From positions 1 through 64,000 of the forward strand of contig NW_027591308.1 of NCBI RefSeq assembly GCF_964213995.1: a DNA stretch of 64,000 nt. The letters run 5' to 3'. Below, piece by piece: positions 13,601 to 35,900 of this stretch. The stretch is from Mustelus asterias. Taxonomy: Eukaryota. Below the pieces are notes generated by a model. It did not search any database. It had not been told where the DNA came from and saw only the letters and a program-made list of their open reading frames with translations. A program made the translations under genes and the position numbers. The first letter of the stretch is position 1, and the number at the start of each line of letters is the position of its first letter.

Positions 13601-16600
13601 TAAGAACATAAGAACATAAGAAATAGGAGCAGGAGTAGGCCATCTAGCCCCTCGAGCCTGCCCCGCCATTCAATAAGATCATGGCTGATCTGACGTGGAT
13701 CAGTACCACTTACCCGCCTGATCCCCATAACCCTTAATTCCCTTACCGCTCAGGAATCCATCCATCCGCGCTTTAAACATATTCAGCGAGGTAGCCTCCA
13801 CCACCTCAGTGGGCAGAGAATTCCAGAGATTCACCACCCTCTGGGAGAAGAAGTTCCTCCTCAACTCTGTCTTAAACCGACCCCCCTTTATTTTGAGGCT
13901 GTGTCCTCTAGTTTTAACTTCCTTACTAAGTGGAAAGAATCTCTCCGCCTCCACCCTATCCAGCCCCCGCATTATCTTATAAGTCTCCATAAGATCCCCC
14001 CTCATCCTTCTAAACTCCAACGAGTACAAACCCAATCTCCTCAGCCTCTCCTCATAATCCAAACCCCTCATCTCCGGTATCAACCTGGTGAACCTTCTCT
14101 GCACTCCCTCCAATGCCAATATATCCTTCCTCATATAAGGGGACCAATACTGCACACAGTATTCCAGCTGCGGCCTCACCAATGCCCTGTACAGGTGCAT
14201 CAAGACATCCCTGCTTTTATATTCTATCCCCCTCGCAATATAGGCCAACATCCCATTTGCCTTCTTGATCACCTGTTGTACCTGCAGACTGGGCTTTTGC
14301 GTCTCATGCACAAGGACCCCCAGGTCCCTTTGCACGGTAGCATGTTTTAATTTGTTTCCATTGAGATAGTAATCCCATTTGTTATTATTTCCTCCAAAGT
14401 GTATAACCTCGCATTTCTCAACGTTATACTCCATTTGCCATATCCTCGCCCACTCACTCAGCCTGTCCAAATCTCTCTGCAGATCTTCTCCGTCCTCCAC
14501 ACGATTCACTTTTCCACTTATCTTTGTGTCGTCTGCAAACTTCGTTACCCTACACTCCGTCCCCTCCTCCAGATCATCTATATAAATGGTAAACAGTTAC
14601 GGCCCGAGTACCGATCCCTGCGGCACGCCACTAGTTACCTTCCTCCAACCGGAAAAACACCCATTTATTCCGACTCTTTGCTTCCTGTCGGATAGCCAGT
14701 CCCCAATCCACTTTAACACACTACCCCCAACTCCGTGTGCCCTAATCTTCTTCAGCAGCCTTTTATGGGGCACCTTATCAAACGCCTTTTGGAAATCCAA
14801 AAACACCGCATCCACCGGTTCTCCTCCATCAACCGCCCTAGTCACATCTTCATAAAAATCCAACATGTTCGTCAAGCACGACTTTCCCCTCATGAATCCA
14901 TGCTGCGTCTGATTGATCGAACCATTTCTATCCAGATGCCCTGCTATCTCCTCCTTAATAATGGATTCCAGCATTTTCCCTACTACAGACGTTAAGCTGA
15001 CCGGCCTATAGTTACCCGCCTTTTGTCTCCTTCCTTTTTTAAACAGCGGCGTAACATTAGCCGTTTTCCAATCAACCGGCACTACCCCAGAATGCAACGA
15101 GTTTTGATAAATAATCACTAACGCATCCACTATTACCTCTGACATTTCTTTCAATACCCTGGGATGCATTCCATCCGGACCCGGGGACTTGTCCACCTTC
15201 AGTCCCATTAGTCTACCCAGCACTGCCTCTCTGGTAACATTAATCGTATTAAGTATTTCTCCTGCTGCCAACCCTCTATCGTTAATATTTGGCAAACTAT
15301 TTGTGTCCTCCACCGTGAAGACCGACACAAAAAACTTATTTAAAGACTCAGCCATATCCTCATTTCCCACTATTAACTCCCCCCTCTCGTCCTCCAAGGG
15401 TCCAACATTCACTCTAGCCACTCTATTCCTTTTTATATATTTATAAAAACTTTTACTATCATTTTGTATATTAATTGCTAGCCTAGCTTCATAGTCTATC
15501 CTTCCTTTCTTTATCGCTTTCTTAGTCTCTCTTTGTTGTTTCTTAAATTTTTCCCAATCACTTGTTTCTCCACTATTTTTGGCCACTCTGTACGCAGCTG
15601 TTTTTATTTTAATACTCTCCTTTATTTCCTTCGTTATCCACGGCTGGTTCTCCCTTTTCTTACAATCCTTGTTTTTTGCTGGAATATATTTTTGCTGAGA
15701 ACTGAAAAGGATCTCCTTAAAAATCCTCCACTGTTCCTCAGCTATCCTACCTGCCAGCCTGCTCTCCCAGTCTACCTTAGCCAATTCATCCCTCATCCTA
15801 TCATATTTCCCTCTGTTCAAACAGAGGACACTGGTTTGAGACCAAACTTTCTCCTCTTCCATCTGAATCAGAAATTCGACCATATTGTGGTCACTAGACC
15901 CAAGAGGGTCCTTCACAATAAGATCCTTAATTCTACCTACCTCGTTACACAATACCAGATCCAAAATAGCTCGTTCCCTCGTCGGTTCCGTAACATGCTG
16001 TTCAAGGAAACTATCCCGACAGCATTCTAAGAACTCTTCCTCCATTCCACCATTACCGACTTGAGTCTGCCAGTCAATGTGCATGTTGAAGTCCCCCATG
16101 ATTATTGCCGTTCCGTTTTTACACGCATCCCTTATCTGCTTGTTTATAGCCCTCCCTACCTCAACATTATTATTTGGGGGCCTATATACCACACCTACTA
16201 GTATCTTTCTCCCTCTACTATTCCTCATCTCTACCCATAACGATTCCACGTTTTGTTCCTCAGAGCCTATGTCATCCCTCAGTACTACCCTGATATTATC
16301 TCTTATTAATAGCGCGACCCCACCACCTTTTCCTTCCTGTCTATTCTTCCTAAACGCCTGATACCCCTGGATATTCATCTCCCAGTCCTGGTCACCTTTC
16401 AGCCACGTTTCTGTAATGGCCACTAGATCGTACCCACTTGTGCTGATTTGCACCATCAACTCATTCACCTTGTTCCGAATGCTTCGTGCATTCAGGCAAA
16501 GTGTCCTTATTCCAGCTTTTATCTGAACCCGCTTTGATGAGTCGCGAACACCGTCTCCCTCTACTCCCTTATCTAAATTACCGCCTTCATTCACTTGCAC

Positions 16601-17390
16601 CCTCTCCTCTACCATTAATTTTGTAATTCCCCTTACCCCTGCATCCTCCCCCCCATCAATTAGTTCCTTGATCCTAGTCAACTCTTCTAGCTCCCCTCCC
16701 CCCAACCTATCTAGTTTAAATTCTCCCCAGTAGCCTTAGCCAACCTACCGGCCAGGATATTGGTCCCCGTGTGATTCAAGTTCCACCCGTTTTTTGTATA
16801 CAGATCACCCCTGCCCCTAAAGAGGTCCCAATGGTCCAGGAACCTGAATCCCTGCCCCCTGCACCAGTCCCTCAGCCACACATTCATCCTCCACCTCACT
16901 CCATTCCTGCCCTCACCTTCCCGTGGCACAGGCAGTAATCCTGAGATTACTACCTTTGCTTTCCTCTTTCTCAGCTGTCTCCCTAATTCCCTGTACTCCC
17001 TTTTCATGACCCCTTCTCCCTTCCTACCCACATCAGCGGTACCAATATGTACCGCTACCTCAGGCTCCTCTCCCTCCCACCTCAGGATTTCTGGGACGCG
17101 ACTAGCGACATCCTGGATCCCGGCCCCAGGGAGGCAGACCACCATGCGAGAATCCCGCCTACCTCCGCAGAAACGCCTGTCTGTCCCCTTCACCATCGAG
17201 TCCCCGATTACTACCGCCTTCCTCCTCTTTTCCTTAGCCCTCTGAGTTACAGGGCTGGACTCCACTGCGGAGACACGGCCACTGCTGCTTCCCCCAGGCG
17301 GGCTGTCCCCCCCAGCAGTACTCAAGCAGGAGTACTTGTTGTGCAGGGGCAAATCCACCGGGGTGCTCTCAACCACCCTAGCCTTACCCT
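13601..17390 (-). mobile_element. Young near-full-length CR1 LINE: ORF1 esterase-like C-terminal part (16711-17376) and ORF2 APE endonuclease + RT (about 16720-13700) with one premature stop at 14597
   Basis: VIGDSMVK (SGNH-like), LNARSIRNK / VAITETW / SDHN, FADDTK, (TTCTTATG)n tail. Confidence 0.97.
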
Positions 17391-17529
17391 TATAGCAACA
17401 GGTGGTAAGGTTAATAAAATACTTAAAAACAAAGATAAATTATCATTGGATAAAAGAAATAGTTTATTAGTACACATTCAAGCTGCAGCATTTGGGAGTT
17501 CCTGGGTGTCAGTTTGATCCAGGGCAAAC

Positions 17530-20370: not shown

Positions 20371-22990
20371 GAATAGTAGAGGGAGAAAGACACTAGTAGG
20401 TGTGGTATATAGGCCCCCAAATAATAATGTTGAGGTAGGGAGGGCTATAAACAAGCAGATAAGGGATGCGTGTAAAAACGGAAGGGCAATAATCATGGAG
20501 GACTTCAACATACACATTGACTGGCAGACTCAAGTCGGTAAGGGTGGAATGGAGGAAGAGTTCTTAGAATGCTGTCGGGATAGTTTCCTTGAACAGCATG
20601 TTACGGAACCGACGAGGGAACGAGCTATTTTGGATCTGGTATTGTGTAACGAGGTAGGTAGAATTAAGGATCTTATTGTGAAGGACCCTCTTGGGTCTAG
20701 TGACCACAATATGGTCGAATTTCTGATTCAGATGGAAGAGGAGAAAGTTTGGTCCCAAACCAGTGTCCTCTGTTTGAACAGAGGGAAATATGATAGGATG
20801 AGGGATGAATTGGCTACGGTAGACTGGGAGAGCAGGCTGGCAGGTAGGATACCTGAGGAACAGTGGAGGATTTTTATGGAGATCCTTTTCAGTTCTCAGC
20901 AAAAATATATTCCAGCAAAAAACAAGGATTGTAAGAAAAGGGAGAACCAGCCGTGGATAACGAAGGAAATAAAGGAGAGTATTAAAATAAAAACAGCTGC
21001 GTACAGAGTGGCCAAAAATAGTGGAGAAACAAGTGATTGGGAAAAATTTAAGAAACAACAAAGAGAGACTAAGAAAGCGATAAAGAAAGGAAGGATAGAC
21101 TATGAAGCTAGGCTAGCAATTAATATAAAAAATGATAGTAAAAGTTTTTATAAATATATAAAAAGGAATAGAGTGGCTAGAGTGAATGTTGGACCCTTGG
21201 AGGACGAGAGGGGGGAGTTAATAGTGGGAAATGAGGATATGGCTGAGTCTTTAAATAAGTTTTTTGTGTCGGTCTTCACGGTGGAGGACACAAATAGTTT
21301 GCCAAATATTAACGATAGAGGGTTGGCAGCAGGAGAAATACTTAATACGATTAATGTTACCAGAGAGGCAGTGCTGGGTAGACTAATGGGACTGAAGGTG
21401 GACAAGTCCCCGGGTCCGGATGGAATGCATCCCAGGGTATTGAAAGAAATGTCAGAGGTAATAGTGGATGCGTTAGTGATTATTTATCAAAACTCGTTGC
21501 ATTCTGGGGTAGTGCCGGTTGATTGGAAAACGGCTAATGTTACGCCGCTGTTTAAAAAAGGAAGGAGACAAAAGGCGGGTAACTATAGGCCGGTGAGCTT
21601 AACGTCTGTAGTAGGGAAAATGCTGGAATCCATTATTAAAGAGGAGATAGCAGGGCCTCTGGATAGAAATGGTTCGATCAATCAGACGCAGCATGGATTC
21701 ATGAGGGGAAAGTCGTGCTTGACGAACATGTTGGATTTTTATGAAGATGTGACTAGGGCGGTTGATGGAGGAGAACCGGTGGATGCGGTGTTTTTAGATT
21801 TCCAAAAGGCGTTTGATAAGGTGCCCCATAAAAGACTGCTGAAGAAGATTAGGGCACACGGAGTTGGGGGTAGTGTGTTAAAGTGGATTGGGGACTGGCT
21901 ATCCGACAGGAAGCAAAGAGTCGGAATAAATGAGTGTTTTTCCGGTTGGAGGAAGGTAACTAGTGGCGTGCCGCAGGGATCGGTACTCGGGCCGCAACTA
22001 TTTAGCATTTATATAGATGATCTGGAGGAGGGGACGGAGTGTAGGGTAACGAAGTTTGCAGACGACACAAAGATAAGTGGAAAAGTGAATCGTGTGGAGG
22101 ACGGAGAAGATCTGCAGACAGGTTTGGACAGGCTGAGTGAGTGGGCGAGGATATGGCAAATGGAGTATAACGTTGATAAATGCGAGGTTATACACTTTGG
22201 AGGAAATAATAACAAATGGGATTACGATCTCAATGGAAAGAAATTAAAACATGCTACCGTGAAAAGGGACCTGGGGGTCCTTGTGCATGAGACGCAAAAG
22301 CCCAGTCTGCAGGTACAACAGGTGATCAAGAAGGCAAATGGGATGTTGGCCTATATTGCGAGGGGGATAGAATATAAAAGCAGGGATGTCTTGATGCACC
22401 TGTACAGGGCATTGGTGAGGCCGCAGCTGGAATACTGTGTGCAGTATTGGTCCCCTTATATGAGGAAGGATATATTGGCATTGGAGGGAGAGCAGAGAAG
22501 TTTCACCAGGTTGATACCGGAGATGAGGGGTTTGGATTATGAGGAGAGGCTGAGGAGATTGGGTTTGTACTCGTTGGAGTTTAGAAGGATGAGGGGGGAT
22601 CTTATGGAGACTTATAAGATAATGCGGGGGCTGGATAGGGTGGAGGCGGAGAGATTCTTTCCACTTAGTAAGGAAGTTAAAACTAGAGGACACAGCCTCA
22701 AAATAAAGGGGGGTCGGTTTAAGACAGAGTTGAGGAGGAACTTCTTCTCCCAGAGGGTGGTGAATCTCTGGAATTCTCTGCCCACTGAGGTGGTGGAGGC
22801 TACCTCGCTGAATATGTTTAAAGCGCGGATGGATGGATTCCTGATCGGTAAGGGAATTAAGGGTTATGGGGATCAGGCGGGTAAGTGGTACTGATCCACG
22901 TCAGATCAGCCATGATCTTATTGAATGGCGGGGCAGGCTCGAGGGGCTAGATGGCCTACTCCTGCTCCTATTTCTTATGTTCTTATGTTC
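20371..22990 (+). mobile_element. Young 5'-truncated CR1 LINE, open ORF2 (partial endonuclease + RT); near-identical inverted copy of 13601-16222
   Basis: ORF 20279-22894 nearly identical in translation to the minus-strand copy; TTCTTATG tail. Confidence 0.97.
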
Positions 22991-24150
22991 TCAGTGAAAC
23001 AGAGAATTACCGAAATGATAAAAAAATGAATCATTTCAGTGGCAGAGAAATTGACGTGTTCACGTAAATCAATCGCATAAGATTGATGGACTGGTGGTAA
23101 AAATAAGTAAAGAACTATTGGAACGTTAGGGGTTATCTGAAGATGGCTTGAAAATAACGCAATTAATGCAACACTTCAGTGAGATAAAACACTGCTTACA
23201 ACTCACCGGGACAACTGTGTTCAGGTCTGAGCCCAATAACTCACGGATGATGTACTGGCCTTGGTTATTGTGCAATACACAATACAATACACAATGATAT
23301 ATGATCTGAATTGTGGGTATTGGTCTCGAGAAACTTACATTTCAGTTAGTATCACAGGTCAGGAAACGTTGAAATTCAGAAAAAGAAAATTAAATGATTT
23401 AATAATGAGATTTTAAAAATGTCCGGCAGAGCTACGATCAAGGAGGAGAAAAAATGATATTAGAGCTAGCACAATAAGGTGTAATTTAACAATGGAATTG
23501 GGTTTGCAAATGTTTCCAAGAATCTGGGATTCTCAAAGCAAAAGCCTGCTGATTATTTTGAAAAATTAAAAAATGCCAAAACCTGAATACGTTTGTGTTT
23601 GGAATGTAAAAGCAAAGACGGTATATGTAGTTTTGATAATGGTCATTCATTATGTATTTGGCAGGAATGGAATGAATCGTACCGAATATGAAAAAAGTTT
23701 CGACAGAGTGGAAGGCCGCTTCCCACACATGTATTTATCTATTCTACGGAATCAGCGAAAGTCTGTGGCTCATCACACCATTCCTGGGCTTCGACTCCTC
23801 ATAAATTTAAAGCAGTTTTATTTAGGGTGGTCTGGACAGGACAGCAATCTCCCCTTCATATATATATGACCTGAGAATTCATGGATGGTTATTCTGGGGC
23901 AAACGTTGAATCGACATTACACGCGGCATAGTTTCAACGACAATTCAACGGTGAATAAAATATCTGCTCCATGGAGATAAATGACACCCTTTAACTGAAC
24001 ATGAAATTTCAATTGCAGGAAATAAGAACGTTGTTTCATGTTCGCACACATCGGCTGCTGGAGTTGGGCATGGCGTTACCCATAACACAAAGGACAGGGG
24101 GAGATATTGCGTTGTGAAATGAGTCCGAAATCAGCAGAGGTTGATGGCTT

Positions 24151-27116
24151 TCATTTTTTCATTAATTTCACAATGAGACTCAGTGGATATTTTATCCCGT
24201 TTTTTAGCTCCTGTCTGAACTTCCTCTGGGTCACGCCATAAACAACGGTGTTGGTGCAAGAACTTAAAAGCTGAAGAGTATTCCCGGTTTCTTGTAAAAT
24301 GAACTTTGGGTCATTAAAATTGGAGCCCGAAAAATAATTATTTTTTGTAACTCGAACATACAAGAAATTTACAACATACATTGTCCATAGCAACAAAAAA
24401 CTGCCCGAGATACTGAAGAGTAAAACAATGGATTTTCTCCGGTTCTCCATCTCAGGGTCAATCGGATTTTCTCTATTGCTCTGTTTGCGGAGTCTTTTTC
24501 TGGCTCTATTGGCACCTAGGATGTGTTTAACGGTCAGAGCATTCAGCAGTAACAACAGGAGGAACGGAAGACAAGGGGTAGAAATTCGGTCAAACCAGTC
24601 ATATATTGTCCACCCAAGAGAGGTATAAAATATATCTTTAATGTTACATAACCACGCAACATTGTCCACTATGAGCATCGGTTCATAAGTCAGATAAGAG
24701 GGGATGTTTTTTAAGCAGCTCAGGGCACAAACTGTTCCTATCACCCCCACCGCCATTCTCTCAGTGCAATATTTTGTTTTCAGTTTCGAGCAACAAATGG
24801 CCACAAATCTATCAAAGGTAAAAGCAACCGTTAACCAGACAGAACTGTCCGTGGCAGTGTAAATTAAGATAGAGGTCACAGTACAGGCTGGAGTGGTGGA
24901 AAGTCGACTAAATCTAAAATATATACCGGCAATCCTGTTCAATATCACAGCGGTGATAATGACCAGGAGATCTGTCACCGCCATGGATAACAGGTAACGA
25001 GTGATGCATCTGGATAGACCACACCTTCCTCTGGACAGGATCACAATGGTGACAATGTTAGCTGTAAGGCAGAGAAGAAGTATTCAGGGGAGTTACATAT
25101 GGCTACTGTCAAAAGTTTGTTAACATAAAACACGGATGTTGCACAGCACGATGGCAAAGTTGTAGATTCTGATTCTGATGGACAAATTAGTCTATAAGGA
25201 GGTCGACATGGTTGAAAAAGCTTAACAGGAGCCATAGTTGTAAAGTGGTGTGGGTGATCTTCAGAACTGCATGCGGATCGGGGCACTGAAACCAAACCAG
25301 GACCTCCTCAATCAGTTTAATGAAAGACACCGGTGGCAGGACTCAATGTGTGTCAGCAATTCAATGATTCAGAAATTCTGCTTCAGGAAACGTGCTGGTT
25401 AGATACAGCCGTTAATTATTTCTTTTCATATATCTGGTCATATCAAATTATTGTTCAAAAATCGTTGCATCAGAAACTTATTATCAGATTGTACCGACAA
25501 ACAGATTGTCTGCAAATCTCTCCATAGACTCGGGTGCATTGACGCCTGTCTGTGCACCAACTGTCTGGAATTCTATCCATAGACAGATTTTTTGCAGTTT
25601 ACGAAATGTGAAACACCAGAAAAATTATATCATTCGACACCTTGAGCCTGTTCAACCGTTCAACGACAACATGGCTGATTTGTTTGTGTTTCCAAATTCC
25701 ACTTTCCAATCTACCTCCAAAAACCTTTGATTTTCTTTTCTAACAGTATATCAGCCTCTGCCTCAAAAAGGTCAAAGTCGCCATATCCACTGCCATCTCT
25801 TGCATCGAGTTCCAAAGTCATGCAACTGTCTAGAAGAAGAAGAAATAATCTCCACGTCTCTTGTCTTAACGTGGCTGCCCTTAATTTTGAAGCATTGCCG
25901 CCCCCAGTTCCAGACTCACCCAGAAGATGACATATGATTGCTGCATCCACCTCTTCAAGGCAGTTCAGGATTTCATATACGTCAATGGGTTCACCCCTCA
26001 CTCTTCTAAACACCAGTGGACAATATCTCACACTGCCATAAGATAATACACTCATTCCAGATATCAAAGGAGCAGAGCTCCTCTGATGCATTCACATCCT
26101 TCATCAAAAGGAGACACCAAATCTGTGCACATTATTCCAAATGTTGTCTCATTAATGCGCTGTATGATTGAACCATTACATCCATATTATTTATATATTA
26201 AATTGCGCTCGTAATGAAGGATAGCATTTCATTGTAATTAAATCAGTCCCTGTACATTTCGAATGAAATTTCATGACTCCTGTCATTGTTTTAGATAGTC
26301 AAATCACCCAGAATTCCTCAGAGCGCTTTTCTTGCCACATTTTGAGATGGGTTTACTTCGCCACGCCATTCACCCCCTTGATCTTTATTTAAGCAGCACA
26401 GACTGACTTTCTTTCAATCCTATTCAGGTCCACCATTTCAATTCATGCTTTATGGCATTCAGGGATTCAAACCAAGAAACTTTTTTATCTTTATTTCATG
26501 AAGTATCGCGAATTGCCAGTAATTCAAGGTTATAAGTACCCCTCTGGGGTTTTCATCCAGTTCCCATCCGATCAGGCTCTACCTTTCCGAAAAAGTGAAG
26601 TGGTATTGAAAATAATTGGCAAGGGGAGAAATTGAAGGGAAACACTGTTTTGACAGATTTTATTTTGTGGGACATGAGCGTCGCTGGTTGGGCAGCATGC
26701 ATTGGCCATGTCAAAGGCAACTAGGGATGGGAACAAAGGCTGGCCAGTTATCGACACCCATGTCTCACGAATGAATACAAAAAAGGATTTTGCTCCAATC
26801 TCTCCACTTGCTGTATATTTAAATACCAATTCACCTGTTTCTATCTGAAACTTACTGTTCTCTCCTCAACAAGCGGCTCACCAGCAAGACTTCACAATCC
26901 CACCTAATGACCTTCAATCAAATTTTATTGAAATAAGGGCACTAGTGAAAGAAATCTGAAAACTTCATAAACCAAAGATTTGGACGATTCTGACACTTGG
27001 TACAGGACACAATCTCTTTGGACAACCAGTTGTTGTAATAACTTACCCAGGACACCAACAGCAGCAAGAATCGGATAGTAAATAGCAAGCACTGGATTGT
27101 TTCCTGGGGCATGCAT
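24151..27116 (-). CDS. GPR139-like class A GPCR, intact two-exon gene (exon 1 27047-27116, exon 2 24151-25061; about 326 aa)
   Basis: MHAPGNNPVLAIYYPILAAVGVL|ANIVTIVILSRG..MAVTDLLV..SVWLTVAFTFDRFVAIC..CTNTVVY; GT-AG phase-1 intron; 7 hydrophobic segments. Confidence 0.9.
25600..26175 (-). mobile_element. Old CR1 3' fragment
   Basis: Degenerate PLVFRRVRGEPIDVYEIL. Confidence 0.65.
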
Positions 27117-32994: not shown

Positions 32995-35900
32995 ATGTGG
33001 ACATCTCTGGTACGTTACCGGTGCCACGTGATAGCGAGTTGAGGAACAGGGAGAGAGTGCAGTTAAACATGTGGTTGCAGGGATGGTGTAGGAGGGAGGG
33101 TTTCAGATACGTGGATAATTGGAACAAATTCTGGGGAAGGTGAGACCTGTACAAACAAGACGGGGTGCAACTGAACCAGAGGGGCACCAATATCCTGGGA
33201 GGGAAATTTGCTACGGATCTTCAGGGGGGTTTAAACTAATTTGTCAGGGGAGTGGGAAAAGGAGTTGTAGTCCAGAAGTCAGTGTTGAGGGTGCTGAGGT
33301 ATTGGGGAAGGTATCAAGGTCAAGGATGGGAACCGGTAGACAGGAGGTTGGGTTGAAGTGTGTCTACTTCAATGCAAGGAGCATCCGGAACAAAGTAGAT
33401 GAACTTGGGGCGTGGATTGGTACCTGGGACTACGATGTTGTGGCCATTACGGAGACGTGGGTAGAACAAGGACTGGAATGGTTGTTGGACGTTCCGGGGT
33501 ATAGATGTTTCAGTAAGTGTAGGGAAGCTGGTAAAAGAGGTGGAGGAGTGGCATTGTGAATCAAGGATAGCCGAAAGGCTGCAGAAAGGCACTTCGAGGG
33601 CGATCTGCACATTGAGGTAATATGGGCTGAAGTTAGAAATAGGAAAGGAGCGGTCACGTTGTTAGGAGTTTACTATAGGCCCCCAAATAGTAATAGAGAT
33701 GTGGAGGAAGAAATTGCTAAGCTGATTATGGATATGTGTGGGGGTCACAGGGTAGTTGTCATGGGGGACTTTAACTTTCCACAGATTGATTGGAACCTTT
33801 GTAGGTCAAATAGTTCGGATGGGGCAATATTTGTGCAGTGTGTGCAGGAGGGTTTCCTGACACAATATGTGTATCGGCTGACAAGAGGTGAGGCCACATT
33901 GGATTTGGTACTGGGAAATGAACCGGGCCAAGTGTTAGATTTGGTTGTGGGAGAGCACTTTGGAGATAGTGACCACAATTCGGTGTCTTTTGTTATTGCA
34001 ATGGAGAGGGATAGGACCGTACGGCAGGGCAAGGTTTATAATTGGGGGAGAGGTCATTATGATGCGATTAGGCAAGAATGAGGGGGCATAATATGGGAAC
34101 AGAAACTGTCAGGGAAAGGCACTAATGAAAAGTGGAACTTTTTCAAGGAACAAATACTGGGTGTCCTTGATAGGTATGTCCCTGTCAGGCAGGGAGGAAA
34201 TGGCCGAGTGAGGGAACCATGGTTCACGAAAGAGGTGGAATTTCTTGTGAAAAGGAAGAGGGGAGCTTATGTAGGGATGAGGAAACAAGGTTCAGATGGC
34301 TCGATTGAGGGTTACAAGGTAGCAAGGAACGAGCTGAAAAAGGGGCTTAGGAGAGCTAGGAGGGGACTTAAGAAGTCCTTGGCGGGTCGGATCAATGAAA
34401 ATCCCAAGGCTTTTTACTCTTACTTGAGGATTAAAAGAATGACCAGGGTGAGGTTAGGGCTGGTCAAGGACAGTAGTGGGAACTTGTGTATGGAGTCAGT
34501 AGAGATAGGCGAGGTGGTGAATGAATACTTTTCTTCAGTGTTCACCAAGGAGAGGGGCCATGTTTTTGAGGAAGAGAAGGTGTTACAGCCTAATAGGCTG
34601 GAGGAAATAGTTGTTCGGAGGGAGGACGTACTGGCAGTTTTGAATAAACTGAAGGTCGATAAGTCCCCTGGGCCTGATGAAATATATCCTAGGATTATTT
34701 GGGAGGCAAGGGATGAGATTGCAGACCCTTTGGCTTTGAACTTTGGGTCCTCACTGTCCACGGGGATGGTGCCAGAGGACTGGAGAGTGGCGAATGTTGT
34801 TCCTCTGTTTAAGAAAGGGAATAGAAATGACCCTGGTAATTATAGACCGATTAGTCTTCCTTTGGTGGTTGGTAAATTGACGGAAAAGGTCCTTAGGGAT
34901 AGGATTTACGACCATTTAGAAAGATGCGGATTAATCCGGGATAGTCTGCACGGATTCGTGAAGGGCAAGTCGTGCCTCACAAATTTGATTGAATTTTTTG
35001 AGGAGGTAACTAAGTGTGTTGATGAAGGTCGGGCAGTTGATGTCATATTCATGGATTTTAGTAAGGCGTTTGATAAGGTCCCCCATGGTCGGCTTATGAT
35101 GAAAGTAAGGAGGTGTGGGATAGAGGGAAAGTTGGCCGATTGGATAGGTAATTGGCTATCTGATCGAAGACAGAGGGTGGTGGTGGATGGAAACTTTTCG
35201 GACTGGAGGCAGGTTGCTAGCGGAGTGCCGCAGGGATCAGAGCTTGGTCCTCTGCTCTTTGTGATTTTAATTAATGACTTAGAGGAGGGGGCTGAAGGGT
35301 GGATCAGTAAATTTGCTGATGACACCAAGATTGGTGAAGTAGTGGATGAGGTGGAGGGCTGTTGTAGGCTGCAAAGAGAAATAGATAGGATGCAAAGCTG
35401 GGCTGAAAAATGGCAAATGGAGTTTAACCCTGATAAATGTGAGGTGATTCATTTTGGTCGGACTAATTTAATTGTGGATTACAGGGTCAAAGATAAGGAT
35501 CTGAAGACTGTGGTGGAACAGGGAGATCTTGGGGTCCATATCCATAGATCTCAAAAGGTTGCCACTCAAGTGGATTGAGCTGTGAATAAGGCCTATAGTG
35601 TGTTAGCTTTCATTAACAGGGCGTTGGAGTTTAACAGCCGTGGTGTTATGCTGCAACTGTACAGGACCTTGGTGAGACCACGTTTGGAATATTGTGTGCA
35701 GTTATGGTCACCTCACTATAAGAAGGATGTGGAAGCGCTGGAAAGAATGCAGAGGAGATTTACCAGGATGCTGCCTGGATTGGAGGGTAGGTCTTATGAG
35801 GAAAGATTGAGGGAGCTAGGGCTGTTCTCTCTGGAGCGGAGGAGGCTGAGGGGAGACTTAATAGAGGTTTATAAAATGATGAAGGGGATAGATAGAGTGA

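Follow-up and report, generated by a model that had tools for sequence, protein, structure and literature searches.

The window, a 64,000-nucleotide stretch of Mustelus asterias DNA (contig NW_027591308.1, positions 1 to 64,000), carries on its minus strand a CR1 LINE whose first open reading frame ends on a slippery heptamer. A sister copy and the ORF1/ORF2 junction of a second CR1 family lie on the plus strand. The features are as follows:

~17391 to 13601, minus: CR1 LINE, full extent of this copy; 5' truncation within ORF1, ends in a short tandem repeat
16711-17439, minus: ORF1 frame; SGNH esterase, last residues Leu-Asn-stop
16711-17391, minus: 3' part of ORF1; esterase at ~17208-16795, 5' truncation near 17391
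16714-16720, minus: slippery heptamer U_UUA_AAC, the final seven bases of ORF1
16711-16713, minus: ORF1 stop TAG, immediately 3' of the heptamer
16693-16703, minus: G-run, candidate stimulator, beginning 10 nt past the heptamer
16502-16713, minus: stop-free -1 linker, ~73 codons from heptamer to endonuclease
16613-16615, minus: earliest in-frame ORF2 ATG, codon 36 from the heptamer; out-of-frame ATGs before it at 16656 and 16644
13700-16501, minus: ORF2 endonuclease and reverse transcriptase; single premature stop at 14599-14597
13601-13699, minus: 3' UTR; predicted stem-loop and short tandem-repeat tail, no poly-A
20371-22991, plus: sister copy; 98.9% identity over 2621 nt, truncated within the endonuclease, 878-codon open frame
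33230-33256, plus: second CR1 family junction; TTTAAAC and TAA stop (33230-33239), G-run 10 nt past the heptamer
6869, 17570, 18313, 28814, 36171, 53510, 54395, 58633, 59347, 62080: GGGCCGAA-type 3' ends

CR1-clade LINEs are characterized by a 3' stem-loop and a short tandem-repeat tail in place of poly-A. The window element has these hallmarks together with an esterase ORF1 (PF13472, E 1.4e-10) and an ORF2 encoding an APE-type endonuclease and reverse transcriptase (PF14529, PF03372, PF00078), and was assigned to CR1 on this basis, without a tree. A search of PDB sequences with the endonuclease as query gave no match. Canonical vertebrate CR1 shares the esterase ORF1, the endonuclease/RT ORF2 and the repeat tail (PMC13343379, PMC3905857; papers are cited here, unless stated otherwise, from the portions of their text that were available). 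The nearest named proteins, at 59-69% identity, belong to rays and skates, and the ORF1 end resembles, by eye, the CR1-named shark and ray consensuses in the available supplement of PMC13343379. The copy is dead, being 5'-truncated in ORF1 and interrupted by the premature stop in ORF2; ORF1 proteins of the same family reach ~85 residues further 5'. The family itself is young, since the sister copy is nearly identical.

In the window ORF1, the esterase reads Asn-Gly-Trp-Asn near 16790-16775 (minus strand), where relatives have Asp-Gly-x-His, the presumed catalytic Asp/His motif; contig variants at sites near it suggest a subfamily difference. Elsewhere in the window, an immunoglobulin V-set exon (PF07686; 38657-39000, plus strand) ends near a CACAGTG motif and has the appearance of a V gene segment of an antigen receptor with its recombination signal. 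A single 310-codon frame (24151-25083, minus strand) encodes a rhodopsin-family seven-transmembrane receptor (PF00001). About ten related LINE/SINE 3' ends, at the positions given above, share a short GGGCCGAA-type core before the repeat tail.

A first-pass annotation of this DNA had read the end of ORF1 as GAG AAT TTA AAC TAG on the minus strand, with the heptamer at 16720-16714 in X_XXY_YYZ phase and touching the stop, with G-runs behind it, with the endonuclease/RT of ORF2 in the -1 frame, and with an in-frame ATG ~30 codons into ORF2. The sequence agrees on all of these points: the stop occupies 16713-16711, a G-run starts at 16703, the domains were found in the frame that is open from 16735 and is -1 relative to ORF1, and the ATG (16615-16613) is codon 36 when counted from the heptamer.

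Conservation of the heptamer at ORF1 ends

TTTAAAC is common in the window, with 32 occurrences on both strands, and its presence alone therefore means little; it is the position and the conservation of the heptamer that exceed chance. The only other ORF1 end in the window, that of the second family (33230-33239, plus strand), is 70.8% identical to the first over 226 nt and reads TTTAAAC followed by TAA.

Three sources supplied the copy-level statistics: the window itself, loci from metagenomes, and contigs from sequencing runs. The metagenome loci were retrieved by a DNA pattern more than 100 nt upstream of the heptamer, and 10 of the 12 junctions analyzed were found in this way. The scan returned at least 27 loci, with ~610 stretches estimated; among the matches listed, 11 of 27 were CR1 ORF1 (eight of them from one data set) and 10 extend to the ORF1 end, the eleventh (L017) stopping short of the ORF1 stop and being left out of the junction count. 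The other 16 listed loci, including one with a weak esterase match (L008), were discarded as non-CR1. One locus (L004) matches a protein in a sturgeon-annotated cluster at 95.7% identity, and the remaining loci are of bird or reptile type. Pairwise identities between the junctions from the listed matches and the window are mostly 40-70% (the L004 row is unreliable). The same upstream pattern gave 7 loci in the viral and 29 in the prokaryote-genome collection, CR1 in none, and protein alignment found no relative of the element in viral contigs.

Nine of the 10 listed metagenome junctions, and thus 11 of 12 with the two of the window, read TTTAAAC followed by a stop; the exception (L002) has lost both the first T and the stop. 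In these 11 junctions the stop itself varies (TAG 7, TGA 3, TAA 1). Free synonymous variation of the heptamer, which had been named beforehand as evidence against frameshifting, is thus not seen among the listed matches and the window. In the ORF1 tails of the same set, TTA is rare (4 of 69 Leu codons), and where seven lineage representatives from this set share an amino acid, they also share its codon in only 48 of 143 comparisons between lineages; under protein-only constraint, the heptamer would be expected in 0.6-1.4% of lineages. A Leu-Asn dipeptide 20 codons upstream is encoded as TTG AAT, CTG AAC and TTA AAC in three families. The heptamer is strongly conserved at the nucleotide level, beyond coding need. 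Four sequencing-contig sets showed no variant at or above 3% at 16710-16720, with 16721, 16709 and 16708 variable; this result is weak, there being ~18 variable places in 150 nt of ORF1, and was not counted as evidence.

Published consensuses extend this pattern. The supplement of PMC13343379 gives them as 400-letter pieces and covers part of the families; in its available portion, 18 of 23 matches to heptamer plus stop sit, as judged by eye, at an ORF1 end. According to the row prefixes, the carriers are catshark, dogfish, stingray, sawfish, chimaera, bowfin, a teleost, coelacanth, bullfrog, bearded dragon, alligator and crocodile. The other five matches lie in AT-rich stretches of non-CR1 entries (three) and in CR1 5' regions (two). 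Six single-base synonymous variants of the heptamer gave six matches in the available supplement, none in a CR1-named entry. Upstream motifs chosen independently of the heptamer retrieved nine CR1 rows, and all eight that reach the ORF1 end carry it; three more matches were not counted. None of the motifs was present in a squamate CR1 supplement. The site is therefore present in shark CR1s, which the first-pass annotation had named as its bearers; it is not restricted to them, being seen in many other lineages. Two dogfish consensuses (SquAca_CR1-18 and SquAca_CR1-3) also have TTTAAAC plus stop 5' of the ORF1 start, which may be chance in AT-rich sequence or a second use; in AldAff_Crack-2, an entry labelled Crack, the ORF1 end is of the CR1 esterase type and again shows heptamer and stop (PMC13343379).

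At the protein level, 101 of 158 ORF1 homologues end near the end of the query. Asn is the last residue in 75 of them, preceded by Leu in 61 and by Gly in eight; clustering at 60% identity leaves 52 clusters, 23 with Leu-Asn and seven with Gly-Asn. Named members of the Leu-Asn group come from a lizard, a snake, turtles, a swallow, a sturgeon and an eel. The residue preceding Leu-Asn can have a T-ending codon in 60 of 61 cases, and the residue preceding Gly-Asn is Gln in seven of eight, as G_GGA_AAC requires. A strict X_XXY_YYZ heptamer is codable by the last tripeptide in 70 of the 101 proteins, compared with 4.6% of internal tripeptides; 31 of the ends do not fit one. A search with the Gly-Asn group found crab-annotated relatives, of which 14 of 19 fit; these are a related set, and the search profile included the Gln-Gly-Asn end. 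The crab-type ORF1 ends, known as protein sequences only, would thus fit G_GGA_AAC. Three crab-type ORF1 proteins (P0056, P0088 and P0228) end in Phe-Phe-Arg, possibly encoded by a U-rich slip site that lies one codon ahead of the stop.

Of 17 longer homologues, 13 have Leu-Asn as their last residues. Three candidates for natural fusions (P0173, P0177 and P0046) were rejected: they cross the junction, reading it as Phe-Lys-Leu, and look like upstream-shifted copies or gene models, not like functional fusions.

The ORF2 frame and the region downstream of the heptamer

Among the listed matches and the window, 10 junctions include the start of the endonuclease. In seven of these the endonuclease lies in the -1 frame and the frame is stop-free from the heptamer onward, with linkers of 32-89 codons; the offset that the earlier reading had required to be fixed is thus -1 in every unbroken copy (7/7). 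In the second window family (33230, plus strand), the endonuclease is in the -1 frame 44 codons downstream. The linker is broken in the other three of the 10 copies, and we read these breaks, like the losses in L002, as probable decay.

Signals for -1 frameshifting usually have a hairpin or pseudoknot 5-9 nt downstream of the heptamer, and a local structure of this kind was not found at the junction. No stable fold lies 3' of the window heptamer, where folding was no better than that of shuffled sequences (z +0.5 to +0.6), and no Rfam frameshift element matched. Among the listed matches and the window, no shared or stable fold emerged, one of 11 junctions falling below z -2 by a folding method whose scope leaves out pseudoknots. 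The first-pass annotation had called the site efficient; this is unsupported, no coronavirus-like pseudoknot or hairpin having been found.

The region contains instead a conserved run of G residues. At offsets 10-14 after the heptamer, G occupies 10, 12, 12, 11 and 10 of the 12 junctions from the listed matches and the window, and in the same set the ORF2 codon at this place is GGG in 11 of 12, whereas Gly in ORF1 tails is encoded by GGG in 21 of 71 cases. Some nucleotide-level function besides slippage would thus exist at the G-run, since third codon positions are conserved. In view of the missing local structure, we consider the G-run a candidate, and unusual, natural stimulator. G-quadruplexes are predicted in three of 11 junctions of this set (window copy, z +1.1), and no long-range pairing partner shared between junctions was found. 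In the window element carrying the slip site, none of 605 windows pairs better than the element's own 3' tip, but equally good pairing is reached in 8 of 98 windows matched for G content and by 83 of 500 shuffles. In the second copy, the own tip ranks 66 of 579 and the tip of the other family pairs better. In this comparison, which covers the two elements with both ends, pairing between G-run and 3' tip fits one of the two and lacks support as a mechanism of general use.

Probable frameshifting and alternative explanations

Programmed -1 signals of eukaryotes follow the X_XXY_YYZ zero-frame rule (PMC3542737), and U_UUA_AAC, G_GGA_AAC and A_AAA_AAC are among the heptamers named as most shift-prone on mammalian ribosomes (PMC5009743). 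We consider the CR1 ORF1/ORF2 junction to be, quite probably, a programmed -1 ribosomal frameshift site, this being the best reading of the sequence data; the frameshift interpretation of the first-pass annotation is supported on the same grounds. Most ribosomes would terminate at the ORF1 stop and release free ORF1p. A minority would slip, the Leu and Asn tRNAs re-pairing in tandem, and continue in the ORF2 frame to yield a small amount of an ORF1p-ORF2p fusion (esterase-linker-endonuclease-RT). Efficiency may be low, perhaps ~1% to a few percent, and the adjacent stop and the G-run 10 nt downstream might assist slippage in place of a local hairpin or pseudoknot. A stop near the slip site matters in an umbravirus (PMC5009743), and UUUAAAC without structure shifts in vitro at 0.85% against a background of 0.21% (PMC7075266). 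Slippage as low as 0.85% could suffice for an enzyme needed sparingly. More speculatively, fusion might keep the enzyme within the multimer that ORF1p forms on its own RNA, much as in retroviral Gag-Pol.

The same heptamer, in the same phase and with a polymerase ORF in the -1 frame, occurs at the deltaretrovirus pro-pol junction (HTLV-1; PMC7075266) and the coronavirus ORF1a/1b junction (IBV; PMC5009743). Those sites have a 3' pseudoknot, whereas no stable structure was found at the junction of CR1, a non-LTR retrotransposon. The nearest LINE precedents are the APE-type non-LTR elements TRE5-A and TRE3-A of Dictyostelium, whose ORF2 needs a -1 frameshift according to a figure legend in a review (PMC5911963); they differ from CR1 in clade, in their unrelated ORF1 and in their amoebal host. 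The -2/-1 site in PRRSV nsp2 resembles CR1 in having no obvious 3' structure and a low-complexity motif 10-11 nt past the slip site (PMC4937337). The PRRSV motif is, however, C-rich and binds PCBP together with nsp1beta, whereas that of CR1 is G-rich and is not known to bind a protein, and the likeness is an analogy only.

Other LINEs reinitiate, human L1 independently of its AUG (PMC5009743, PMC2881922). In SART1, with its UAAUG, and in human L1, ORF2 is read from a bicistronic RNA in dependence on ORF1 translation (PMC2881922, PMC3708506, PMC10275272); these elements yield a separate ORF2p, whereas in CR1 the AUG is unconserved and the upstream heptamer conserved. ORF2 of CR1 could be translated by such termination and reinitiation, in the manner of SART1, without an AUG as in L1, or by scanning to an ATG, with the conserved bases acting as the termination/reinitiation signal. 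For SART1 and L1, reinitiation is the model that has been accepted (PMC2881922, PMC3708506), and three shark consensuses (3 of the 18 published junctions; PMC13343379) have a TAATG stop-start at the junction. An in-frame ATG lies ahead of the endonuclease in five of the seven open copies among the listed matches and the window, that of the window family has no variant at or above 3% in four sequencing runs, and a start near the stop would equally account for the stop-free linker. However, none of the 12 junctions from the listed matches and the window has a conserved AUG or near-cognate codon at a fixed place or a SART1-type AUG overlapping the ORF1 stop. In this set, the earliest in-frame ATG falls anywhere from codon 5 to codon 62 (5 nt past the heptamer in two bird-type loci) or is absent before the endonuclease. 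The latter holds for L004 and L027; in L004 the Pfam domain begins at residue 36 and the first Met is residue 44, eight residues later. The downstream ATG noted in the first-pass annotation is likewise unconserved between families, and in the window copy it comes only after two ATGs that are out of frame. UGGGA, sought as a TURBS-type motif, has no fixed place: among the listed matches and the window it is absent within 150 nt in four of 12 junctions and scattered over 30-117 nt in the others, falling 40-90 nt upstream of the stop in four of 12, at differing places. Reinitiation also leaves the in-phase slippery heptamer and the Gln-Gly-Asn ends unexplained, and we regard it as unlikely; in the TAATG families, frameshifting and reinitiation could both operate.

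The conservation of the G-run at third codon positions would also suit some other RNA element made up of heptamer, stop and G-run, such as an ORF1p binding site, a packaging signal or the acceptor site from which an ORF2-only RNA would be spliced. This explanation is very improbable: a pyrimidine tract is lacking, as is an AG at a constant position, the linker is maintained in the -1 frame of the heptamer, and the alternative heptamer-compatible ends are not predicted by it. Least probable of all is that ORF1p needs a Leu-Asn C-terminus and the heptamer is a by-product, an explanation that draws on the predominance of a final Asn (75 of 101 proteins) immediately following the final helix in the esterase region and appears largely refuted by synonymous invariance, since the codons are fixed and not just the residues, the upstream Leu-Asn is variously encoded, and the residue before the terminal Leu-Asn varies freely among those with T-ending codons.

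Beyond the frameshift reading itself, we tentatively propose, as a possibility somewhat short of an even chance, that esterase-type CR1 elements from crabs to birds have made their reverse transcriptase as a Gag-Pol-like fusion since a time preceding the jawed-vertebrate split, by a structure-free signal composed of the heptamer, the stop and the G-run at +10, and that the G-run is recognized either by a protein, whether of the host or of the element, or by the 3' tip of the element itself.

Implications for CR1 elements

Reviews extend reinitiation from L1 and SART1 to LINEs generally, in the portions available, and the translation of the second ORF of LINEs is an open question on which the CR1 site bears. 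The word 'frameshift' is absent from the main texts of PMC13343379 and PMC3905857, and the searched portion of PMC5009743 makes no mention of 'CR1'. No report of CR1 frameshifting was found in the literature covered, which included the available portions of PMC11835228, PMC5006619, PMC4120745 and the PMC11303007 supplement; the original descriptions of CR1 from chicken and turtle (1997-2001) and Kapitonov and Jurka 2003 were outside its reach and may mention the overlap. The mechanism is thus a known one in a setting where it appears unreported, although an earlier mention in print may exist.

In most vertebrates, the retrotransposons are dominated by CR1-group elements, which make up 22-34% of shark and ray genomes (PMC13343379). 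If the frameshift reading is correct, a major vertebrate LINE uses the Gag-Pol strategy of retroviruses, and the N-terminus of ORF2p would be redefined for annotation and for retrotransposition assays. If the broader proposal on readout of the G-run also holds, the transposon that dominates in most vertebrates would contain a frameshift stimulator of a new class.
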